Shown piece after piece: positions 1 to 8,493 of a stretch of DNA of 8,493 nucleotides. The DNA is from a virus. Lineage: Duplodnaviria > Heunggongvirae > Uroviricota > Caudoviricetes. The position numbers were made by a program, and so were the translations under genes. The DNA is taken from IMG/VR virus record IMGVR_UViG_2703718808_000008, positions 1 to 8,493 of that record; one strand, written 5' to 3'. The notes below the pieces were generated by a model. The model was not told the DNA's origin, did no database searches, and saw only the letters and a program-made list of their open reading frames with translations. Numbering within the stretch: the first letter of the stretch is position 1; the number at the start of each line of letters is the position of its first letter.

Positions 1-354
1 TGCTGTTATATATAACTTATTTTGAATAACATATTGATTTAATTATATTTTCAATTAAGCCCGAAGTGCAAAAAAACTCAAAATAACTACACCAGTGACT
101 ACACCGTTCGGCGCACTGTATGAAACAACGTGGAACAAATAGGCACAAGAAATATAAAGGCGGGTAATTTTAAGGGGGCGTTGCTGTCGATATGGGGATT
201 CCCATATCGGGAACCCTACCGGAATTTTTTTCCGGTTAACAGTTAATCAGGCTGGTGGGCTTTACCTGTTCGGTAGGTGTTATGATTATCGTAATACCTT
301 TCCCTCAATGGGGTAAAAGCATCAACCGTAACGAAAGTCGTTATGGTTGCCGCC

Positions 355-467
355 GATACCCCAAATTTGGGTATCACGAGTAAGCCCCAAAATCTGGGTG
401 TTGCTCTTACTACCCAAACTACGGGTAGTTTCCGTAATTTCATGGTCGAGTTGCAGATCTGCAACTC
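355..467. other. Cluster of palindromic/hairpin motifs in non-coding DNA
   Basis: Three tandem units CCCAAA-N-GGGT at 355-375 (perfect 14-bp palindrome ACCCAAATTTGGGT), 385-400 and 411-427, then a perfect 20-bp palindrome GAGTTGCAGATCTGCAACTC at 448-467 with central GATC. Overlapping ORFs lack plausible RBS. Confidence 0.5.
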
Positions 468-505
468 CCCCATCAACCACAGGCGAATTTCCGCCTTCGG
501 TCATT

Positions 506-720
506 CCTTAATCATCTGCGTAATCATAATGATTATTCAGCCAGCGCAATTTTGCGCTTTGCTTTAAGTTCAACCAGTTACCGCCAGCTTCCCCCAATGG
601 GGGATTGTGGAATAATCAACGGTTTAGGCCTTAATCATCTGCGTAAACATAAGTAATCATAATGATCATTCAGCCAGCGCAATTTTGAGCTTTGCTTTAA
701 TCTCAGTGAGTTACCGCCGC
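506..720. repeat. Direct repeat, two copies of an ~85-95 bp unit (506-588 and 629-720)
   Basis: Both copies share CCTTAATCATCTGCGTA...ATCATAATGAT(T/C)ATTCAGCCAGCGCAATTTTG(C/A)GCTTTGCTTTAA...AGTTACCGCC; copy 2 has a ~10-bp insertion and includes the stop codon of the 711-992 ORF. Confidence 0.8.
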
Positions 721-992
721 AACCGTTCCGGCTTCTTCCAGTGGTACGTGATTTTCTCCTTCTCCCGATACATCTCCACGCGGCGACGGTATGCCAGCAA
801 CTCAAGGACTCTGGTTCGTATGTTGCGCATATCCACGCCGTTAAGCTCAATACCATCACGGCGCATCACCTCAGCAACAACACGCGCATAATTTTCAGCG
901 GTCACGCTGTCCGGTTGCGTGCCCTGTTCGTCATGCTGCTGGCTGATTCCGGTAACGCGGCGGATTAATCGCAGTAGTTCGGCTTCTGTCAT
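711..992 (-). CDS. Hypothetical protein, 93 aa
   Basis: ORF with G-rich SD (GATGGGGG) just upstream of ATG at 992; lies between cos and the direct repeats. No family recognised. Confidence 0.5.
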   Translation of the reverse strand: MTEAELLRLIRRVTGISQQHDEQGTQPDSVTAENYARVVAEVMRRDGIELNGVDMRNIRTRVLELLAYRRRVEMYREKEKITYHWKKPERLRR

Positions 993-1046
993 TGTGCCCC
1001 CATCGTTCTGATAGCCTGGTGTCGTCGGGTCCTTCCTGGAATTATG

Positions 1047-1140
1047 GCCCGTTACGGGGCGGCGACCTCGCGGTTTTTATCTGTTTATGAAAATTTTCCG
1101 GCAAAAGTCAGATCCGTTCTTCTTCTCTGTAACAGACTGT
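1047..1140 (+). other. Lambda-type cos site (cosN with 12-nt cohesive-end sequence at 1057-1068, plus cosB-like segment)
   Basis: 1051-1073 reads GTTACG GGGCGGCGACCT CGCGG, matching the recalled lambda right-end/left-end junction; downstream TTTATGAAAATTTTCCGG and CCGTTCTTCTTC match recalled lambda cosB-proximal sequence. Confidence 0.75.
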
Positions 1141-1218
1141 TTAACAATGAAAATATTAAAAAAAGAAAGGATCTGACACGAGGCATTTTAGCCAGAAAAT
1201 GCCATTATCAGATCCTTT
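1140..1218 (-). terminator. Intrinsic terminator downstream of TerS-like gene (nested hairpin, possibly bidirectional)
   Basis: Outer inverted repeat AAAGGATCTGA (1166-1176) / TCAGATCCTTT (1208-1218) enclosing inner GGCATTTT (1182-1189) / AAAATGCC (1196-1203); on the minus strand followed by CTTTTTTTAATATTTT. Confidence 0.6.
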
Positions 1219-1247
1219 CTCATTTTTGTTCAATAATTGCGCTTCTG

Positions 1248-1790
1248 TTACTTGCCTTTCTTCTGTAGCAACTTTTCCGGTACGTTTCCGGTTGTTTCTT
1301 TCAAGTAATCAGCCAGTATCTGTGGGAGGTTGTCGGCAACTCTGGCACTGGCATTACAGGCTTTAACCACTTCCCTTTTAAGCCTGTCCAGCATGGCGGG
1401 GGTAATCTGTGGGAAGCTCCTTTGCATAGTAAGCGGGAGGCTGTCCATGATTGATGAAATCTGACTCGCCAGCTTTGAAAGCGCGTACAGGCAAAACTCA
1501 GTATCAATCACGTCACCGCGATCGCGCTCGTTTTTAAGTTCCTGCGCCTCCGCCTGTGCTGTCAGTAATCTGATCCTGACTCGTAAGAGTTCATCATCAT
1601 CAATATCGCCTTTGTCGTTTGTAAGCTGGCTAATTGCATTGTTAACCCTATTGTCTATCACGCTGGCAACATCATAAAACGCCTCACGGCCTTTACGTTC
1701 AACGGGAGTCACTCCCCACTTGTCGAACGCTGTCGCACTTACACGGCAGCTTTTCGCCATGTTTTTTTTGTTCATCAGGTGCGATTTCAT
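1248..1790 (-). CDS. Terminase small subunit homologue, lambda Nu1-like (possibly a satellite packaging-redirection protein)
   Basis: 180-aa ORF collinear with recalled lambda Nu1: N-terminal DNA-binding region (MNKKN..., G-KG-E--YD-A-VI) and central block LTAQAEAQELKNERD...TEFCLYALSKLA...I-S-LPL--QR-FP. Start uncertain (1790 or 1775), no strong SD. Confidence 0.85.
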   Translation of the reverse strand: MKSHLMNKKNMAKSCRVSATAFDKWGVTPVERKGREAFYDVASVIDNRVNNAISQLTNDKGDIDDDELLRVRIRLLTAQAEAQELKNERDRGDVIDTEFCLYALSKLASQISSIMDSLPLTMQRSFPQITPAMLDRLKREVVKACNASARVADNLPQILADYLKETTGNVPEKLLQKKGK

Positions 1791-1913
1791 TAATACACCA
1801 ACTTAATTACTGCTTCAGGTTGGTGTATTGTTTGCATCTTTCCCTTTTCATTCATAAAGATAGAGCAAACAACAAAACCACCACCACCCCCCTGAAAAGG
1901 CTCATAAATAGCG

Positions 1914-1968
1914 AAAACGCGCGAGGTCGTCGCCCCGTAACGGGTCCATATGCCGGAAAGGACCCGTA
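1914..1968 (-). other. Second, degenerate cos-like sequence in inverted orientation upstream of the TerS-like gene
   Basis: Reverse complement reads GGGTCCTTTCCGGCATATGGACCCGTTACGGGGCGACGACCTCGCGCGTTTTCGCTATTTATGA, about 85 percent identical to 1024-1078 and matching recalled lambda GTTTTCGCTATTTATGA; two substitutions in the cohesive-end/cosN core. Confidence 0.55.
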
Positions 1969-1991
1969 AAAAAAGCCGGATTTCTCCGGCC
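1968..1991 (-). terminator. Intrinsic terminator after the capsid operon
   Basis: Minus strand reads GCCGGA-GAAA-TCCGGC followed by TTTTTTT, immediately after the stop of the 1996-2409 ORF. Confidence 0.7.
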
Positions 1992-1995
1992 TGTC

Positions 1996-2409
1996 TCAGA
2001 TGGTTTTCAGTATGCGATCGATGTCGCCGTCATCGCCCGGGTTTCTGCCATCGTATGCCATGCCAGCTGATACGGCTTGCGGGCTGTGCATGTCCATAAA
2101 GTTTTCAAAGGCTGCGGTAAGCTCCGGCGCAACCTTCGGACGTTCCTGCTCTATGGTCATGCTAAGGATGCTTTTAGCCGTACCAACATCGATACAAGGC
2201 ACGTTTGCCATTGCACGTAACAGCGGCTGATAGTCGCCAGATTCATCAAGCGCCATAATCGCATCAGCGCGCGGCTTGTCCTGCTCTTCCAGTTTGTTAA
2301 GTTGATATATGGCCTCGTAGGTTGATAACCCTCTGTCAGCCATTGCCCGCGCTTCGGCTTTAAATTTACTCGCCAGCGGTAGCGTCATGATGCTTTCATT
2401 CGTTGCCAT
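1996..2409 (-). CDS. Hypothetical protein, 137 aa, last gene of the capsid operon
   Basis: SD AGGGGGAA upstream of ATG at 2409; starts 13 bp after the decoration gene stop and is followed by a terminator. No family recognised. Confidence 0.7.
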   Translation of the reverse strand: MATNESIMTLPLASKFKAEARAMADRGLSTYEAIYQLNKLEEQDKPRADAIMALDESGDYQPLLRAMANVPCIDVGTAKSILSMTIEQERPKVAPELTAAFENFMDMHSPQAVSAGMAYDGRNPGDDGDIDRILKTI

Positions 2410-2421
2410 CGTTCCCCCTGC

Positions 2422-2757
2422 TTATCGGGCCAGCGGCTGAACGGATACGCCAGACCCCGCAAAGGCAGCGCATTTTTTCGCGTCAGTGTCGGCGCTCTCA
2501 GGCCAGTTTACGGCAGCGATATTAAATATCCCCGTCTTGTAACACTGTGCTGATTTCTGCGTCGACGTGTCCACGGGGTACGAAGTCAGATAAACAGCCT
2601 TGCCAGATTCCTGACCATCCCACGGCTTAAACTCGCCATTGTCCGCCAGCATCAGCGGGGTAAATTCCTGAATAACGCCAGCATCAGCGGCAAAATGTAC
2701 CAGCGTCGTGGCGACCTGCTGACTGCCTGCGAATAACTCAATGTATGGAGTGTCCAT
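2422..2757 (-). CDS. Head decoration protein, lambda gpD-like
   Basis: 111-aa ORF sharing blocks with recalled lambda gpD (TPLML, WDG, YK-G-F, WPE, KK-AFAG); SD GGGGGA; 11-bp gap after the capsid gene stop. Confidence 0.85.
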   Translation of the reverse strand: MDTPYIELFAGSQQVATTLVHFAADAGVIQEFTPLMLADNGEFKPWDGQESGKAVYLTSYPVDTSTQKSAQCYKTGIFNIAAVNWPESADTDAKKCAAFAGSGVSVQPLAR

Positions 2758-2768
2758 AGAATCCCCCG

Positions 2769-3824
2769 TTAACCAATTTTGACGGTAACAAATTTGCGAA
2801 TATCTGCCGGTACCGGCTGCGGTGCGCTGTGTGTCTGCACGTACTCAATCGCCGGATCGCCGTCCTCAATCCAGTTTTTCGGGTAGTACATGTTTTGCGT
2901 TGCGCCCGTTCTGACCGCTTCCTGATCCATAATCGCACCATAGGCCACCAGGCCTTTATTGTTGGTGTTACCCAGGACCAGTAAATCAGGCTCAAGGAAA
3001 TATTTTTCGGTGCCGTCGCTGTCAGCGTATTTGCCGGAATAGACGATAAGGGCAATATCGCCCAGATAGCCTTTAAAGCTCACCACTTCGCCCAGGTTTT
3101 TACAGGCCAGTTCTGCGGCGGATTCTGAACCACGGGAAAGATCGTACAGCTCACGGAATTTTTTAAAGCTGCGTAACGTGCGCCATACCTCAGCGCCCAT
3201 AATCATGACGTTTGCGGGGCAACCAGCCTGATCTGCATAAAGCTCGATGTCATAGATTGGGTCGTGCATCTCTTTATCCTGCTCGGACCATTTTTTACCC
3301 TTGGCCTGCTCTATGATGCAGTTTTCCGGTATTTTCCAGTCTATTTCATAGCGTTCTATGCCTTCGCCCTCAATAATGTTTTTTCCGGTCGTTATCGCAT
3401 TCACCGCCAGCCATTCCACGCGCGCTTTAATGGCGTTTACCTGGCGGCGCATGTTGCCAGTAATCAGGCGCATACGTCGGTAGGTAGGGTCGTTAAGCTG
3501 TGCCGGATCTTCTCCAGCCATGCGCATGATGGTTTTTGTTGGATCGATTTCGTGCTTTGGCTTCATGTAGCCAGGTTTAATCGTGCTGGTTTCGTATCCT
3601 TTATCGCGCTGTACCTGGCTGCCAACCATAGGCGAACAAAACGCCGACATGGTGACTTCTTCAATGTCCAGGGTATCCAGCATGATGTTTTGGGTGCTGA
3701 ATGTCGCCACGTTCGGGAAAAACAGCGTGGTAAACAGCGGACTGAATTTAAATTCCGCAATATCCCCGCGATTCAGGTACGCAAAAAGCTGGTTAGTGTT
3801 AAGTGCCGTTGCTTTGCCTGCCAT
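2769..3824 (-). CDS. Major capsid protein, lambda gpE-like
   Basis: 351-aa ORF sharing many collinear blocks with recalled lambda gpE (FKF-PLF-LFF, PGY-KPKHE, DP-YRR-R-I-NMR, RSFK, RGS-S, VS-KG-GD-A-VYSG-Y, VLGNT, YPKNW, GDPA); SD GGGGG; start overlaps upstream stop (TAATG). Confidence 0.92.
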   Translation of the reverse strand: MAGKATALNTNQLFAYLNRGDIAEFKFSPLFTTLFFPNVATFSTQNIMLDTLDIEEVTMSAFCSPMVGSQVQRDKGYETSTIKPGYMKPKHEIDPTKTIMRMAGEDPAQLNDPTYRRMRLITGNMRRQVNAIKARVEWLAVNAITTGKNIIEGEGIERYEIDWKIPENCIIEQAKGKKWSEQDKEMHDPIYDIELYADQAGCPANVMIMGAEVWRTLRSFKKFRELYDLSRGSESAAELACKNLGEVVSFKGYLGDIALIVYSGKYADSDGTEKYFLEPDLLVLGNTNNKGLVAYGAIMDQEAVRTGATQNMYYPKNWIEDGDPAIEYVQTHSAPQPVPADIRKFVTVKIG

Positions 3825-4030
3825 TATTCACCCCCATAATTTTTATGCATCCCAAGCGCCGCAAGTAAATAAGAGCGCACAAGTGAACCTATCGACGGCT
3901 CCGGCGTCATCAGCGGATCCAGTCCAGCCGCTACGCCAGCCTCATAGTTTTTTTTGTGGCGCTGCTTGAGCACCTCCACGATTTCGGGGCTTATGTACAC
4001 GGTCACCCCGCCTTTTTTCTCTTCTGCCAT
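3824..4030 (-). CDS. Hypothetical 68-aa protein, first gene of the capsid operon
   Basis: ATG at 4028-4030 (MAEEKK...) preceded by SD AGAGGAA; the track's earlier start at 4063 lies inside the operator palindrome. Stop coupled to the capsid gene start. No family recognised. Confidence 0.6.
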   Translation of the reverse strand: MAEEKKGGVTVYISPEIVEVLKQRHKKNYEAGVAAGLDPLMTPEPSIGSLVRSYLLAALGMHKNYGGE

Positions 4031-4060
4031 AGTCAGAAATTCCTCTTTGACTAAAAAAAT

Positions 4061-4114
4061 CATAACTGGATGTTCATCCAGTTATGATTATAATCATGAT
4101 TGCATTTTGTGCAA
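4061..4114 (-). promoter_or_regulatory. Putative sigma70-type promoter of the capsid operon with overlapping operator palindrome
   Basis: Minus-strand -35 TTGCAC (plus coords 4109-4114), 16-nt spacer, -10 TATAAT (4087-4092); perfect 12-2-12 inverted repeat CATAACTGGATG-TT-CATCCAGTTATG at 4061-4086 around the predicted start, and 14-bp palindrome ATGATTATAATCAT at 4085-4098. Confidence 0.4.
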
Positions 4115-4192
4115 TGATGTTGAGTTGTGTTGCAAATTATGAAATTATTATCCCGATCATGTGTGTCAGTGCACCAAAAAAACCTCATATGC

Positions 4193-4234
4193 AAAAGCCC
4201 GATAAGTTTCCTCTGACCTTATCGGGCTTTTTTA
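4193..4234 (+). terminator. Intrinsic terminator, likely bidirectional
   Basis: GCCCGATAAG (4197-4206) / CTTATCGGGC (4218-4227) stem flanked by AAAA upstream and TTTTTT downstream. Confidence 0.6.
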
Positions 4235-4408
4235 TCTGCCTGCAAAGATGTCGAACAAAAATTAACCACAACCATCATCTTTTTTGCATCAAAACAATTA
4301 AAAACAATAAATTACGCTCATGATGATGATGACGATAAAATCACAAAAATGCGCTTTTTTCCGCGCCGACCCGCCTCGTGGACAGGCCCCCCCGCCAGGA
4401 GTACCTAC

Positions 4409-4431
4409 AAAAAAGCCGGATTTTCTCCGGC
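4409..4431 (-). terminator. Intrinsic terminator after the SSB-like gene
   Basis: Minus strand reads GCCGGA-GAAAA-TCCGGC then TTTTTT, 8 bp after the SSB-like stop; near-identical to the terminator at 1968-1991. Confidence 0.7.
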
Positions 4432-4439
4432 CATGATGT

Positions 4440-4850
4440 TCAGAAAGGAATATTGTCACCGTAGGGGTCATCGCCTCCAGCTGGTGGCTGATTACCCTGT
4501 GTGCCTGTGGTTTTGCGTCTGTTCCCGCCAGGACGTGCCGCACGGGCACTGATTACGCTGTCTGCAATAACCTGATAACCCTGCCGCGTTTCCCCGTTCT
4601 GTCCGGTCCACTGGCTTATCTGCATCACGCCAGATATGCTGGCAACGTCGCCTTTTTGATGTTTAGCCAGGAAGTCGGCCTGCTTACCAAATGCCATCAC
4701 CGATAGCCATAACGTAGCCGTTCCGTCATCTGCCTGGCTGCACGGAAGGGGGACCGCCATACGCGCCAGCGTCATCGGTGTGCCCTTGCTGGTCTGTTTT
4801 ACCTGCGGGTCGTCCACCAGCCGCCCGTAAGCGGCTATCTGTGCTGTCAT
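4440..4850 (-). CDS. ssb: Single-stranded DNA-binding protein homologue
   Basis: 136-aa ORF with OB-fold-like blocks resembling recalled E. coli SSB (GRL-DDP-V, W--V--FGK, W-G), Gly/Pro-rich linker and C-terminal ...DNIPF resembling the SSB tip DDDIPF; SD GGAGAGGTGG; start overlaps upstream stop (ATGA). Confidence 0.75.
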   Translation of the reverse strand: MTAQIAAYGRLVDDPQVKQTSKGTPMTLARMAVPLPCSQADDGTATLWLSVMAFGKQADFLAKHQKGDVASISGVMQISQWTGQNGETRQGYQVIADSVISARAARPGGNRRKTTGTQGNQPPAGGDDPYGDNIPF

Positions 4851-5161
4851 GATTCCACCTCTCCGGTTTTAACGTTGATGGTTGTTACCTGTTCCGCTTC
4901 GGCAATCTCCCGTTCTGTCAGCGTGGCAAAGTTTGCCGCCGCTGTGGTCATGAATGCGCTTATCAGTTCGGGATGTTCCTTCGCGTATCCTTCCCGCGTG
5001 TGGCGGTCTATCGTTCTGATTGCCACCTTTAAGGTGTGCTCAGTCATGTCTAACGCTTTATATTTTGGCTCTGTTCTGTCTCTGCGAATTTTGGTCATTT
5101 GTCGCCCCTGATTCATGTTTTCGGCTGGCATGTTTGTTAAGTGATTTTGATGTATGCGCAT
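4847..5161 (-). CDS. Hypothetical protein, 104 aa
   Basis: Strong SD GAGGGGGTGA upstream of ATG at 5161; coupled to the SSB-like gene; directly downstream of the iteron region. No family recognised. Confidence 0.6.
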   Translation of the reverse strand: MRIHQNHLTNMPAENMNQGRQMTKIRRDRTEPKYKALDMTEHTLKVAIRTIDRHTREGYAKEHPELISAFMTTAAANFATLTEREIAEAEQVTTINVKTGEVES

Positions 5162-5208
5162 TTATTTTCACCCCCTCGTTTAAAAAGTTTTTAGTTGTGC
5201 CTCCCCCC

Positions 5209-5431
5209 CTCTACCCATCTACCCGAATGCTCATCATGTCAGTAATGGCGCGGCTTTCAGCGGGTAGATAGCTTTTTGGGCTCCTCTACCTGCCGTCTAC
5301 CCTGCTACCTGAAACTGATAAAATCAGGTAGAAGAGGTAGAGAGCTTTTATTAGCCTTCCACCTGGCCCTCTACCCACTTATCATGTTGAATAATATACG
5401 TTTATTTCATTCAGGTAGATGGGGTAGAGGG
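5209..5431. repeat. Iteron array, putative origin of replication
   Basis: At least 11 copies of (C)TCTACC(C/T) in both orientations (5209-5224, 5262-5269, 5283-5311, 5325-5344, 5366-5377, 5412-5430) with an AT-rich stretch at 5376-5411, directly downstream of the primase gene. Confidence 0.7.
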
Positions 5432-5444
5432 CTTTTACAAAAAA

Positions 5445-7193
5445 TTATAAAAACGCGTCGCAATCGTCTGTTGTAATTGCGTTGGTCTGCGTTACTCCCT
5501 TAACTTTTCGCGTAATATATTCATGCCCGTAAACTTTCGCCGCTGGCTTCATGGCCTTGCTGAACTCAGCCACGTTTAGCGGTTTGCTCCTGCCTGCGTA
5601 TGCCATAAACGCCAGATAGACGCGGTAAAGGCTGTTCCTGGTCGTGTACTTCACTGAATCACCACCGCCACCCATCATCAGGCCGCGCGCTTCCTCCAGA
5701 AAATTCAGGAACTGGCAAAACTCAATAACCGGATCCGTCTGTTGCTTTATCGCCAGTGCTTCATCTCCGTCACGCTGTTCCAGTAGTAAAGCCCGTGCCT
5801 TCTCAGGGTCGGTAAAGTTCGCCAGCAAGCGGCGGATAATAACGGGGATTTCAGCCGCGATCTTTTCCGGTAGTTCCCTGTCTTTTTCGGCCTCACTGAC
5901 GATATTGTCGAAACGGAAAATCACGCGACGACGTGCCACACCTCCGGCCCGTTCGGTGAATATCATCGGGTTATTGTTGGTCGCCAGCACCACCGCCCTG
6001 ATTACCGCCGTGAAACGCTTTTCATATTTCGGGTTTATTTCCACGGGGTCGCCGCCCGTGATTTTCTTGATGCCCGTTCCTTCGCCTGTATATTTCGGCT
6101 GGTCTGCCAGGACGATAAGACGACTCCCGACAACCTGCGCACGTCCACCAGCATCATCAAGCGATGTCATTTCAGCGCTTACCGTGTTCTGTTTCCCTGC
6201 CAGAAGGCTGGCTATGTGCGTGAATGTACTTTTACCGCTCCCGCCATCTCCTGTGGCCTCAATAAACATCTGCCAGTCGTACCGGTTCGCCATAATCATG
6301 TACAGCGCGGCACATATACGCATCATCTTGTGCGGGTCTTTTCCGGCTGCGTGCTCAAGCCATTTATGAAAGTTTGGCGCGTTGTCGCAAATGTTCTCCC
6401 CTGGTGCTGGTGGCGTGTACTCAATGCCGTTGTGCGTGGTGATCCAGTTCTCCGGCGTGTGCGGGGAAAATTCCCCCGTTTTCAGGTCAAGTGCACCATT
6501 GGCGAACGGCAACAAATCGCCGGACGGCTCGCCCATTGGTTCGGCAATAACTTTTAACGCTTCCACGGCGTTATTGATTACGCGTTTGCTGAAAGTGGCC
6601 CTGTGCTCTGAATAGATCGCCACCATTTCGCGGCTCAGCTCCATTGTGCTGACCGGACACCATACCCCGCCGCGCCATACGTGAACGATTTCACTTTCCG
6701 GATGCACACAAACGCCATCAAAGCGCTCGGCAAGCAGCTGCGCGCGCTCACTGTCTGCCATTTGTGCCAGTTGCGTATTTTTCTGCTCCGGCATGGTAAG
6801 CCCTGCGGCAATATTTTCACGCTCAGCATTCAGATAGCGCCGCCAGTTTTCACACTTCTGGACGTGCATTCCTTCGTGGTAAAAATTTGCGTCCTGAATA
6901 TCTGCCGCCGCCAGCTTCTGACCAATCTTTTTGGTCTCCACTAAATCCAGTTCTCCGGCCTGGTACAGCCTTACGCGCTTTTTCCCATCCGGAACAATTT
7001 TCAGCGCATCAAGTTCGGCAAGCTGATTTGGCCCAAGCCACACAGGCGGCACATTATCGCCGGATGCGGGGCCATCCTGCTCCTGCCATTGTTTCGCGTG
7101 CGACCAGGCATCACTACCCGCAAAGATAATTACCTCTGTGTCTTTGTGTTTTATTCCGCGTGGCTGTTTTTTTACGTTCGGTGCCAGTTTCAT
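5445..7193 (-). CDS. Primase/helicase, P4 alpha (D5-like) family
   Basis: 582-aa ORF with Walker A GDGGSGKST and the size and layout of P4-family primase-helicase proteins; SD AGGGGT; start overlaps upstream ORF stop (ATGA). Confidence 0.9.
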   Translation of the reverse strand: MKLAPNVKKQPRGIKHKDTEVIIFAGSDAWSHAKQWQEQDGPASGDNVPPVWLGPNQLAELDALKIVPDGKKRVRLYQAGELDLVETKKIGQKLAAADIQDANFYHEGMHVQKCENWRRYLNAERENIAAGLTMPEQKNTQLAQMADSERAQLLAERFDGVCVHPESEIVHVWRGGVWCPVSTMELSREMVAIYSEHRATFSKRVINNAVEALKVIAEPMGEPSGDLLPFANGALDLKTGEFSPHTPENWITTHNGIEYTPPAPGENICDNAPNFHKWLEHAAGKDPHKMMRICAALYMIMANRYDWQMFIEATGDGGSGKSTFTHIASLLAGKQNTVSAEMTSLDDAGGRAQVVGSRLIVLADQPKYTGEGTGIKKITGGDPVEINPKYEKRFTAVIRAVVLATNNNPMIFTERAGGVARRRVIFRFDNIVSEAEKDRELPEKIAAEIPVIIRRLLANFTDPEKARALLLEQRDGDEALAIKQQTDPVIEFCQFLNFLEEARGLMMGGGGDSVKYTTRNSLYRVYLAFMAYAGRSKPLNVAEFSKAMKPAAKVYGHEYITRKVKGVTQTNAITTDDCDAFL

Positions 7194-7489
7194 TTTTTAC
7201 CCCTGAATACGTTAAGCATCTTTTTTATTTCCTGAATATTGGCGCGTGCTTTCTCCCTGCTGGTGGGCACGTTACGCGGTACGGCCTGCACAAGAGAAAA
7301 ATCACGGTCGAACTGATAAACAGGCATCACGCAATCATATTCGTAGCCTTCACGACGGTAAGTTACGCGCCGTTCCTCCACGCCCTTAATCATTACCGTG
7401 CCGCCGTACTGGTCGCGGTAAATATCACCGCGCATGAATTTAGTGCGAGTTTTGCCACTGGCAGTTAAGCCAGAATATTTAAGTTTCAT
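7190..7489 (-). CDS. Hypothetical protein, 99 aa, coupled to primase
   Basis: SD GGAGAA upstream of ATG at 7489; stop overlaps the primase start. No family recognised. Confidence 0.65.
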   Translation of the reverse strand: MKLKYSGLTASGKTRTKFMRGDIYRDQYGGTVMIKGVEERRVTYRREGYEYDCVMPVYQFDRDFSLVQAVPRNVPTSREKARANIQEIKKMLNVFRGKK

Positions 7490-7494
7490 TATTT

Positions 7495-7725
7495 TTATTC
7501 TCCGGTGTGGGGCGCGTTATTATTTTCGTGAATTGCCATTGCCTTATCCAGTTCATCAATAACAGGCGATAGTAATGTCTGAACGGCGGCAAGCATTAAT
7601 GACGAAGATTCTTCTCCAGCTTCCGTTGCTTCAATTAATTTAATTAACAACACATTCATTTCGCGTGCTTTAATTAATGCGTTTTCAGAGTGGATTAATA
7701 CTTCAAAAGGGATTTTATGCATCAC
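7495..7725 (-). CDS. Hypothetical small protein, about 75 aa
   Basis: GTG at 7725 (SD AAGGGAG, 7-nt spacing) or ATG at 7722; 5-bp gap to the downstream ORF. Predicted helical, no family recognised. Confidence 0.55.
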   Translation of the reverse strand: MMHKIPFEVLIHSENALIKAREMNVLLIKLIEATEAGEESSSLMLAAVQTLLSPVIDELDKAMAIHENNNAPHTGE

Positions 7726-7945
7726 AAATTTTCTCCCTTATTCTTTTAATGTCCTCATTAAGGATGTCTGTAACTTTTATCAGCGAGTTTTTGGCAATTA
7801 TTTTTATTGTTTTAAGTTTTCTTTTGTCGTGCTCCGACTGTGATTTTCTCTCCATGCTCTCCACCATGTGGGTAACATCAACGAGCGCACGTATCAGTAT
7901 TTGCATTGCTTCTTCTGCTGCGTCCGGTGTGGTTTTATTGTGCAT
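7715..7945 (-). CDS. Hypothetical small protein, 76 aa, first gene of the replication operon
   Basis: ATG at 7943-7945 preceded by SD AGGGGGA (the track's 7987 start is a GTG without SD); overlaps the next ORF by 11 nt. Confidence 0.5.
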   Translation of the reverse strand: MHNKTTPDAAEEAMQILIRALVDVTHMVESMERKSQSEHDKRKLKTIKIIAKNSLIKVTDILNEDIKRIREKICDA

Positions 7946-8057
7946 AGGTTTCCCCCTGGCGAATACGGGCGGCAAATACAGCAACACAACCGGACGGGCA
8001 ACGGCTACGCGCTTCGCGTTCCGTCCAGGCGGTTACGTGGATGATTTGAGATTCTCC

Positions 8058-8101
8058 GGCACTCAGTGCCAGAAAACGCCACACAAAGGCCGTTTGTGTG
8101 T
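8058..8101. promoter_or_regulatory. Two adjacent palindromes in the divergent control region (candidate operators)
   Basis: GGCACT-C-AGTGCC at 8058-8070 and CACACAAA-GGCCG-TTTGTGTG at 8081-8101, upstream of the minus-strand replication operon. Confidence 0.3.
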
Positions 8102-8209
8102 GTGCTAGTCGTGGGGTATGATTTACGGCAACCATAAATTTACCTCTCTATAGTGTTTGTGGTTAGACGCCCTGCATGTGTTCCAGCACTGTGGGGCGTT
8201 GTTTTTTTG

Positions 8210-8279
8210 GTGCAAGTCACCTTGAAATCTAGGTTACTTTTAGGTGACTTGCACTTCAAGTCTTTTTTTATTTTTTTTT
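8210..8279 (+). other. Long inverted repeat followed by a T-run (operator or plus-strand terminator)
   Basis: Perfect 13-bp arms GTGCAAGTCACCT (8210-8222) / AGGTGACTTGCAC (8242-8254), interleaved second pair CTTGAA/TTCAAG, then T-rich tract 8263-8279; about 40 bp upstream of the plus-strand gene start. Confidence 0.4.
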
Positions 8280-8320
8280 CTCCGTATACTGAACACCACC
8301 TAACAGTAAGGAGAACAGAG

Positions 8321-8493
8321 ATGCCAACAGGTACAACCAACAACAAGTCACAACAAAAAACTGCTAGAGTACCTCTAGACGTTTTAAGCGAAATGAATTT
8401 GGTAAAAGAAGAAAACGAAACAGACGCACAATTTATCGTTACTGCCATGCGCGGCGAAATCAAACGCCGCCAGCGTCGCAAGGCCAAAGAATC
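8321..8493 (+). CDS. Partial CDS (5' end only) of unknown function, divergent from the replication operon
   Basis: ATG at 8321 preceded by SD AAGGAG at 7-nt spacing; frame open to the window end (MPTGTTNNKSQQKTARVPLDVLSEMNLVKEENETDAQFIVTAMRGEIKRRQRRKAKE...); noticeably more A-rich than the minus-strand genes. Confidence 0.55.
   Translation, partial: MPTGTTNNKSQQKTARVPLDVLSEMNLVKEENETDAQFIVTAMRGEIKRRQRRKAKE

Follow-up and report, generated by a model that had tools for sequence, protein, structure and literature searches.

The window described here is a stretch of 8,493 nucleotides (positions 1 to 8,493 of the IMG/VR virus record IMGVR_UViG_2703718808_000008, Caudoviricetes) and can be assigned as most of a Gram-negative phage-inducible chromosomal island (PICI) of the EcCICFT073 family, comprising its packaging end. 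The assignment follows from two comparisons: an element 98% identical to it interrupts tqsA in E. coli JNE181771 and has a tyrosine integrase at its far end, and the gene order in CFT073 is that of the window (major capsid protein, gpD-like protein, 137-aa protein, cos, rppA, cos and a 93-aa open reading frame, ORF). The slot that the 144-aa rppA occupies in CFT073 is held in the window by terS (1248-1790, minus strand), which encodes a 180-aa, class 1 small terminase subunit of the Nu1 family (PF07471, phrog_57 and alignment to Nu1) and lies between two inverted cos sites, here termed cosL and cosR. The 1-kb region containing these features is present at 80% coverage or more in 487/5,426 complete E. 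coli genomes (~9%), many O157:H7 among them.

The two sites are built on an inverted repeat of 76 nt with 78% complementarity between arms (1026-1101 and 1891-1966, repeat finder). The left arm (1026-1101, plus strand) comprises cosQ, cosN and I2 of cosL, as identified by the repeat finder, the lambda alignment and the published cos2 flank, and is homologous to cos2 of EcCICFT073; the right arm (1891-1966, minus strand) comprises the same elements of cosR and is the cos1 homolog. In cosL, cosQ (GGGTCCT, 1027-1033, plus) sits at -30 to -24 from the nick, with the sequence and spacing of lambda's last 30 bases, and cosN (GGGCGGCGACCT, 1057-1068, plus) is identical to the lambda cohesive end at 12/12 positions. 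The equivalent elements of cosR lie on the minus strand at 1965-1959 (cosQ, GGGTCCT) and 1935-1924 (cosN, GGGCGACGACCT), and the core common to both arms is 24 nt long (CCCGTTACGGGGCGGCGACCTCGC). The terS stop codon (1248-1250) converges on cosL, and the terS ATG at 1790 is located at +146 from the right cosN. An earlier note on this DNA had described precisely this arrangement, with terS bracketed by two inverted cos-like sequences, a perfect lambda cosN on the plus strand of the left copy, terS converging on it from the minus strand and the right copy upstream of terS. The resemblance to lambda cosN held when both copies were aligned to lambda.

The same note counted two substitutions in the cohesive end of the right copy, of which only one is real (G6->A, window base 1930); the second difference is at +17, outside the cohesive end. 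Over positions 1000-2000, the island of strain RM10466 differs from the window at base 1930 alone, and the variant is carried by 0/157 fetched loci. The change is best read as private to this strain, or as a sequencing error, in an otherwise perfect site. The note's implicit premise of a canonical left copy and a degraded right one is mistaken, since the right copy is the homolog of the essential cos1 and is perfect in close relatives. When up to one mismatch is allowed, the cosN 12-mer has 3 matches in the window against 0.06 expected, a count reached in 0/200 shuffles. The third match (GGGCGGCGACCC, 6046-6057, minus strand) falls inside the primase gene and has neither a cosQ nor a cosB-like flank; the JNE181771 relative has it too, and it is probably due to chance.

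Downstream of its cosN, cosL has a cosB (1105-1220, plus strand) in lambda register, with counterparts in Gifsy-1, SerU-LTIIb and lambdoid phages. Its R3-like (1105-1120, +49-64), inverted R2-like (1164-1179, +108-123) and R1-like (1205-1220, +149-164) elements are displaced by no more than 2 nt from those of lambda (R3 49-64, R2 109-124 and R1 151-166). The cohesive end, the cosQ offset and the three R elements of a lambda-type cos are thus all present between 1027 and 1220. The R core is CAGATCC as opposed to lambda CGTTTCC, so that the cosB-like sequence recognized earlier has the lambda layout and not the lambda specificity. No co-oriented terS or terL accompanies cosL: there is no plus-strand gene, the converging terS ends at its stop codon, and no terL was found among the island genes in the ORF list or by Pfam.

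The CAGATCC core also occurs in the Salmonella prophage Gifsy-1 and the E. coli prophage SerU-LTIIb, in the cosB that precedes the terS of each, and prophages of this type are present in 38 E. coli genomes. When viral contigs were searched for lambda cosN with CAGATCCGTTC downstream of it, 43 loci emerged, and ~33/36 of those newly fetched are ordinary lambdoid cos->terS->terL arrangements on contigs of up to 50 kb. These lambdoid loci have a co-oriented terS at +182 with the DNA-binding region ..DVRTIT.., then terL. The window cosL is 75-78% identical to these phages over 201 nt; identity reaches 90-93% at the functional positions defined in lambda, vs 65-70% elsewhere (Fisher p 3e-5 to 2.5e-3). 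CFT073 cos2, which has CATGTCCGG elements, is near-identical over ~170 nt to the cos sites of real phages, with 92/120 matches showing the cos->terS->terL order. Judged from these alignments, cos2-type sites are copies of phage cos from specificity groups other than those of lambda and phi80. Another scan, GGATCTGA N20-45 TCAGATCC over genome contigs, proved too loose and returned only chance palindromes from unrelated phyla.

The cosB of cosR (1791-1890, minus strand) is of a different kind. Across 11 distinct versions of the region from cosN to the terS start, two blocks are invariant: TGGTGGTGGTTT at the R3 position (+50-61, 1886-1875) and, in inverted orientation, ACACCAACCTGAA at the R2 position (+110-122, 1826-1814). 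The TGGTGG and ACACCAACC blocks do not vary, and the R2-position block is the inverted partner (GGTTGGTGT) of the R3-position block TGGTGGTGG. A further element, GTTGGTGTATT (1801-1791, minus strand), is less conserved. The TGGTGG motif precedes class 1 terS at 22/22 loci and none of the phage terS genes; single copies are found upstream of four class 2 terS genes. A hairpin formed by AATACACCAAC and GTTGGTGTATT before the terS start was considered as an R2/R1 pair or an operator and discarded, as only its upstream arm is invariant across islands.

TerS scores 83 bits against PF07471 (Phage_Nu1; curated cut-off 30) over residues 33-148 and matches phrog_57 with E 3e-53. Over its full length it is 35% identical to lambda Nu1 through the C terminus (E 1e-34). 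The candidate N-terminal winged helix-turn-helix DNA-binding domain (residues 6-45) can be aligned with residues 3-50 of Nu1, its wing being shortened; this stretch is outside the Pfam match, and a PDB sequence search gave no meaningful match that would support its fold. The C-terminal half, which aligns to the end of Nu1, is closest to TerS of PhiR5_1/L181-type phages (58%). According to work with lambda-21 hybrids, this half of TerS sets TerL specificity. There is no detectable similarity between TerS and RppA (BLASTP E = 1.3), and thus the window lacks an rpp gene between its two sites.

Island TerS proteins fall into classes according to their DNA-binding regions. Class 1, to which the window belongs, has the diverged N-terminal region ..RVSATAFDKW.. 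with the shortened wing. Class 2 has a phage-21-like region (..VDPRTIERW..) and, upstream, a canonical cosB with CATGTCGG elements, as in phage PhiR5_1. The DNA-binding regions of the two classes are unrelated, and the classes share the terS 3' half and the same downstream CAGATCC cos. Among phages, the ASIRTIQNW type of domain goes with GTTTCC elements, VDIRTIDRW with ATGTC(C/G) and CDVRT(I/V)T with AGATCC. The upstream cosB co-varies with the TerS DNA-binding domain across five classes; the downstream cosB does not. Because the upstream cosB tracks the domain, and because the published island factor acts at cos1, we infer that the island TerS has cosR as its site. In keeping with a private cosR, island PEC199 combines this terS and cosR with no CAGATCC cos.

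The published system against which these features have to be read is EcCICFT073. It carries two cos sites, and lambda and phi80 transfer plasmids carrying either of them (Fillol-Salom et al. 2018, PMC6092414). Deletion of cos1 lowers transfer of the island, deletion of cos2 raises it and deletion of both abolishes it (PMC6092414). RppA binds helper TerS, and the complex recognizes cosB of cos1 and not that of cos2 (Fillol-Salom et al. 2019, PMC6739421). According to the published supplementary sequences, cos1 is the copy directly upstream of rppA and cos2 the copy past the rppA 3' end; the right and left cosQ-cosN flanks of the window are almost identical to cos1 and cos2, respectively. The feature in the window is accordingly best described as the terS-bearing counterpart of the published cos1-rppA-cos2 module. 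According to both papers and the Murialdo-Feiss review, neither cos1 nor cos2 contains a recognizable phage cosB. None of the three discusses the inverted orientation of the sites; the string 'inverted' is absent from the text and supplements of both papers, and the review does not mention cos2. It has been noted in print that some Gram-negative PICIs carry a terS homolog. A literature search whose coverage did not extend to subscription journals found no paper on the packaging of terS-type E. coli PICIs or on cos2 orientation.

The segment bounded by the two cosN sites is an invertible cassette of 855 bp (1069-1923), consisting of cosB(CAGATCC), terS and cosB(TGGTGG). To count orientations, the segment between both cosN sites was reverse-complemented and used as the query. 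For the terS cassette, this flipped query matched 5 E. coli genomes full-length and in one piece, against 487 with the orientation of the window; for the rppA cassette of EcCICFT073 relatives, the numbers are 68 native and 15 inverted. Two flipped terS genomes, the second island of JNE181771 and PM4-5, were checked gene by gene, and in both terS is on the strand opposite to the 93-aa ORF, the 137-aa gene, the capsid genes and the primase. JNE181771 contains two related islands (L001 and L036, at tqsA and near yejO) whose terS cassettes are in opposite orientations. One inverted rppA cassette is located at the phoQ-side site also used by EcCICFT073, and its RppA is identical; ST130 has a flipped form without a gene. 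In the flips, the cosQ-to-cosN spacers remain with the backbone and both cosB regions travel with terS; the crossover is therefore confined to the 24-nt shared core. Recombination within this core flips the cassette, both orientations exist in nature, and flipping has happened several times. A comparison of loci L012 (7958-11333) and L017 (7831-11238), considered as a further cos-arm flip, was rejected: BLAST shows a larger inversion of ~3.4 kb with other end points, which carries the whole cos-terS-cos module together with a 270-aa gene.

The suggestion in the earlier note that the terS segment had been inverted is thus borne out insofar as both orientations occur (487 vs 5). It leaves the converging, 'wrong-way' cos unexplained because each cosB stays with the cassette, and the CAGATCC cos faces the terS 3' end in either orientation. 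Between 700 and 2400 there is no ORF or Pfam match for an invertase or recombinase, and the only recombinase is the island integrase ~8 kb away. With no recombinase nearby and one orientation far commoner than the other, the flips are most simply explained by rare homologous recombination. A more elaborate possibility, which we regard as doubtful, is that the cosN pair forms a sticky-end module cut by terminase, the 855-bp fragment being re-ligated either way round or into the cut backbone of a co-resident island. If both cosN sites were cut, the fragment ends would share the 5'-GGGCGGCGACCT overhang and the backbone ends would carry its complement. This would explain why crossovers are limited to the cosN core, why unrelated cassettes (terS class 1, terS class 2, rppA and short gene-less forms) lie between the same arms, and why the arms are near-identical in some islands. 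All of these data are also explained by ordinary homologous recombination in the 24-nt core.

The reading we favor, and consider probable, is that the island has two packaging signals: a private one, cosR, served by its own TerS, and a public one, cosL, copied from a group of lambdoid phages. The island TerS would bind the cosR elements (TGGTGGTGG and inverted GGTTGGTGT) through its diverged N-terminal domain, while its conserved C-terminal half would recruit the helper TerL. The helper terminase would then cut cosR and package island concatemers leftward in window coordinates. The whole TerS would in this way do the job done in EcCICFT073 by the RppA adaptor, and it likely acts as a satellite TerS borrowing helper TerL, as in the pac-type Staphylococcus aureus pathogenicity islands (SaPIs), rather than as an Rpp-like adaptor. 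With a helper of the '..DVRTIT..' TerS group, the unmodified terminase could start at cosL and proceed in the opposite direction, so that cosL would widen the helper range or compete for helper terminase.

The inverted order of the sites may be understood in terms of packaging polarity. Lambda terminase packages from cosN toward cosB and terminates only at a cos that is met from the cosQ side. Two sites 870 bp apart in direct order could each end packaging runs begun at the other, and recombination between them could delete the cassette. Given this polarity, neither termination nor cassette deletion is expected with sites in inverted order, and the sole rearrangement would be a harmless flip. 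Of the three readings offered in the earlier note, two packaging signals with different specificity is the one best supported by the alignments, the co-variation and the published cos1/cos2 experiments; the idea of a decoy or regulatory cos partly overlaps with it.

Several points weigh against this reading. Deletion of cos2 in EcCICFT073 raised transfer by lambda and phi80, showing that there the site is dispensable and even costly (PMC6092414), and a benefit of cosL with other helpers is assumed. The literature yielded no experimental test on this island or any terS-type E. coli PICI. Binding of TerS to the TGGTGG elements rests on co-variation across about five independent classes only, and the association of CAGATCC with lambdoid loci in IMG/VR is partly a matter of ascertainment, since the motif itself was the search query. 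The cosR cosN of this particular strain bears the G6->A substitution, and a promoter scan between cosR and terS found no sigma-70 site, a result that bears above all on the flipped cassette. Finally, on the terS mRNA, R2 and R1 of cosL form a strong hairpin (-33.7 kcal/mol) followed by U7, and their conservation could in part reflect a terminator role; this palindrome and U-run probably terminate terS transcription.

That hairpin also speaks for the alternative that comes closest, namely that cosL is a non-functional relic of an old phage recombination, kept through linkage to terS or as the R2/R1 terminator of that gene. The absence of the site from some islands points the same way: PEC199 (L006) has this terS and cosR and has no CAGATCC cos, its downstream site (1760-1830) being a third cosN-like variant. 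So does the EcCICFT073 experiment, in which deleting cos2 caused no drop in transfer by lambda or phi80. A terminator, however, needs neither the conserved cosQ at -30, nor the perfect 12-nt cosN, nor R3 at +49-64, and conservation is significantly higher at the functional positions defined in lambda than in the spacers. Other island lineages have, around terS, arms that share one non-lambda cosN and are up to 98% identical over 80 nt; the cos pair is therefore being kept matched. In addition, both EcCICFT073 sites supported plasmid transduction. On this evidence a relic is unlikely, if still the strongest of the competing explanations.

Somewhat less plausible is that cosL serves mainly as a weapon or decoy, replicated copies of a helper-type cos soaking up or misdirecting the helper terminase. 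The site does mimic a real phage cos, PICIs interfere with helper packaging (PMC6739421), and the cost of cos2 with non-cognate helpers shows that the terminase interacts with it. Nevertheless, a terminase that cuts cosL on a concatemer is expected to package island DNA, and such a role is hard to separate from alternative initiation.

It is very unlikely that the roles are swapped, with cosL as the site of the island TerS and cosR as the helper-type site. The cosB of cosL is the more complete and lambda-like of the two and is linked to the conserved terS 3' end in many islands, as this arrangement would have it. Against this, an identical CAGATCC cosB is found with two TerS classes whose DNA-binding regions are unrelated, while the upstream cosB varies with the domain (TGGTGG in class 1 vs CATGTCGG in the 21-like class 2). 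In real phages, a CAGATCC cosB is accompanied by a third type of domain, '..DVRTIT..', and the island-specific factor of EcCICFT073 acts on cos1, the homolog of cosR. Least credible of all is a programmed switch of the Hin/Gin/Cin or shufflon kind that toggles terS expression or packaging direction: both orientations are indeed seen within three or more island lineages, as well as between a pair of islands in one genome, and a terminator separates the capsid operon from the cassette, but an invertase or recombinase gene is absent in or beside the cassette, the skewed and apparently lineage-bound ratios (487:5 and 68:15) are those that rare homologous events would give, and each cos retains its own cosB after a flip, so that neither specificity changes.

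Other islands vary in the cos pair itself. In L026 and L028, which have class 1 terS, cosN differs between the two sites, being lambda-type upstream and GGGGGTAGCCATACGCGC-type downstream; such mixed pairs fit with two sites that address different helpers. A 12-kb viral contig (L010, 1392-4168) has two nested inverted cos-like pairs (1392-1465/4095-4168 and 2426-2501/2876-2951), which surround a different gene for a helix-turn-helix (HTH)/TerS-like protein.

Every sizeable gene of the window is on the minus strand. Beyond terS, these encode a DUF4222 protein (7190-7489), a primase of the D5_N/P4 type (5445-7193), SSB (4440-4850), a capsid protein of the lambda gpE family (2769-3824), a gpD-family decoration protein (2422-2757), the 137-aa protein (1996-2409) and the 93-aa ORF (711-992). 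The PICI backbone is thus represented by primase, SSB and the gpE-like and gpD-like proteins in the window itself, and by the integration and integrase seen in the JNE181771 relative. Elsewhere the 137-aa protein has been annotated as 'head-tail connector'; its match is to the C-terminal end of phrog_53 (head maturation protease family), and it looks like a Nu3-type scaffold, in which case the island would encode E, D and a Nu3-like protein in that order. An intrinsic terminator after its gene, just upstream of cosR (1973-1992, minus strand; -15.6 kcal/mol, z -4.4, then U7), is predicted to insulate the cassette from the capsid operon. There are no Rfam matches within the window.

Outside the coding regions, a tandem duplication of ~80-90 nt (506-585 and 629-718; period 123-133 nt, 89-96% identity) lies in non-coding DNA between the 93-aa ORF and the left end of the island. 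Direct and inverted repeats of the GGTAGA(N)GGGTAGAG type are clustered at 5214-5440, directly downstream of the primase gene, and PICI replication origins have been reported just downstream of this gene. In the gap upstream of the capsid operon, AATCATAACTGGATG and CATCCAGTTATGATT form a perfect inverted repeat of 15 nt that is overlapped by palindromes (4058-4105) and could be an operator. Relative to close relatives, the window is mosaic at 4234-4405, 5102-6830 and 8138-8493; in RM10466 a DUF927 protein replaces the primase, and the right end past 8137 is unmatched in the JNE181771 element.

The two-cos layout is already known from EcCICFT073. Relative to the literature searched, three things appear to be new: the cos2-type sites can be identified as phage cos, terS-type islands have a cosB that is lambda-like but private, and the cassette inverts in nature. 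These features matter as cos-type PICIs spread virulence and defense genes in E. coli. One model, that of an Rpp adaptor acting at cos1, has accounted for their packaging; here the island would solve the same problem at that site in a second way, by encoding a complete TerS together with a cosB of its own. The locus also suggests what the second cos, so far without an explanation, may do, since in both the window and EcCICFT073 it faithfully reproduces the cos found in an existing group of lambdoid phages. If so, each island would have one private and one public packaging signal, and its helper range could be read from the cos2-type sequence. As the cassette occurs both ways round and its contents are interchangeable, the cos pair looks like a hotspot at which satellites and phages swap packaging specificity.

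Compared with EcCICFT073, the window has the same backbone, gene order and inverted cosQ-cosN arms, and a specificity gene between the sites that is co-oriented with the cos1-type copy. The cassettes differ in that the window has a full-length Nu1-family TerS in place of a 144-aa Rpp adaptor, a private cosB with TGGTGGTGG and its inverted partner vs CACCACCACCAC in cos1, and a cos2-type cosB of the CAGATCC type vs the CATGTCCGG type. Compared with lambda, cosL has the entire layout (cosQ, cosN, I2, R3, I1, R2 and R1) at lambda spacing, with cosQ and cosN identical, and in cosR, cosQ, cosN and I2 are joined by conserved blocks where R3 and R2 would lie, with terS pointing the same way. Neither site has the R-element specificity of lambda, however; there are two sites instead of one, no terL follows, and the position equivalent to the Nu1 start (+191), which for cosL is 1247, is taken up by the stop codon with which the converging terS ends.

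Satellite-encoded TerS is familiar from the pac-type staphylococcal islands, where the SaPI protein pairs with helper TerL and redirects packaging to the satellite. The island in the window would follow the same scheme of satellite TerS and helper TerL, but SaPI packaging is of the headful (pac) type and uses an unrelated TerS family, whereas the window has cos-type packaging signals, a Nu1 homolog and a defined cosB. Cosmids and SaPIbov5 carry the cos of their helper, and cosL is on paper such a borrowed site, packageable by unmodified terminase; it differs in being paired, in inverted orientation, with a private cos and an island-encoded specificity protein. Lastly, the Hin/Gin/Cin systems and the shufflons share with this cassette a segment bounded by inverted repeats and found both ways round, although the cassette in the window lacks a recombinase gene, is bounded by repeats that are terminase sites and seems to keep one orientation within a lineage.

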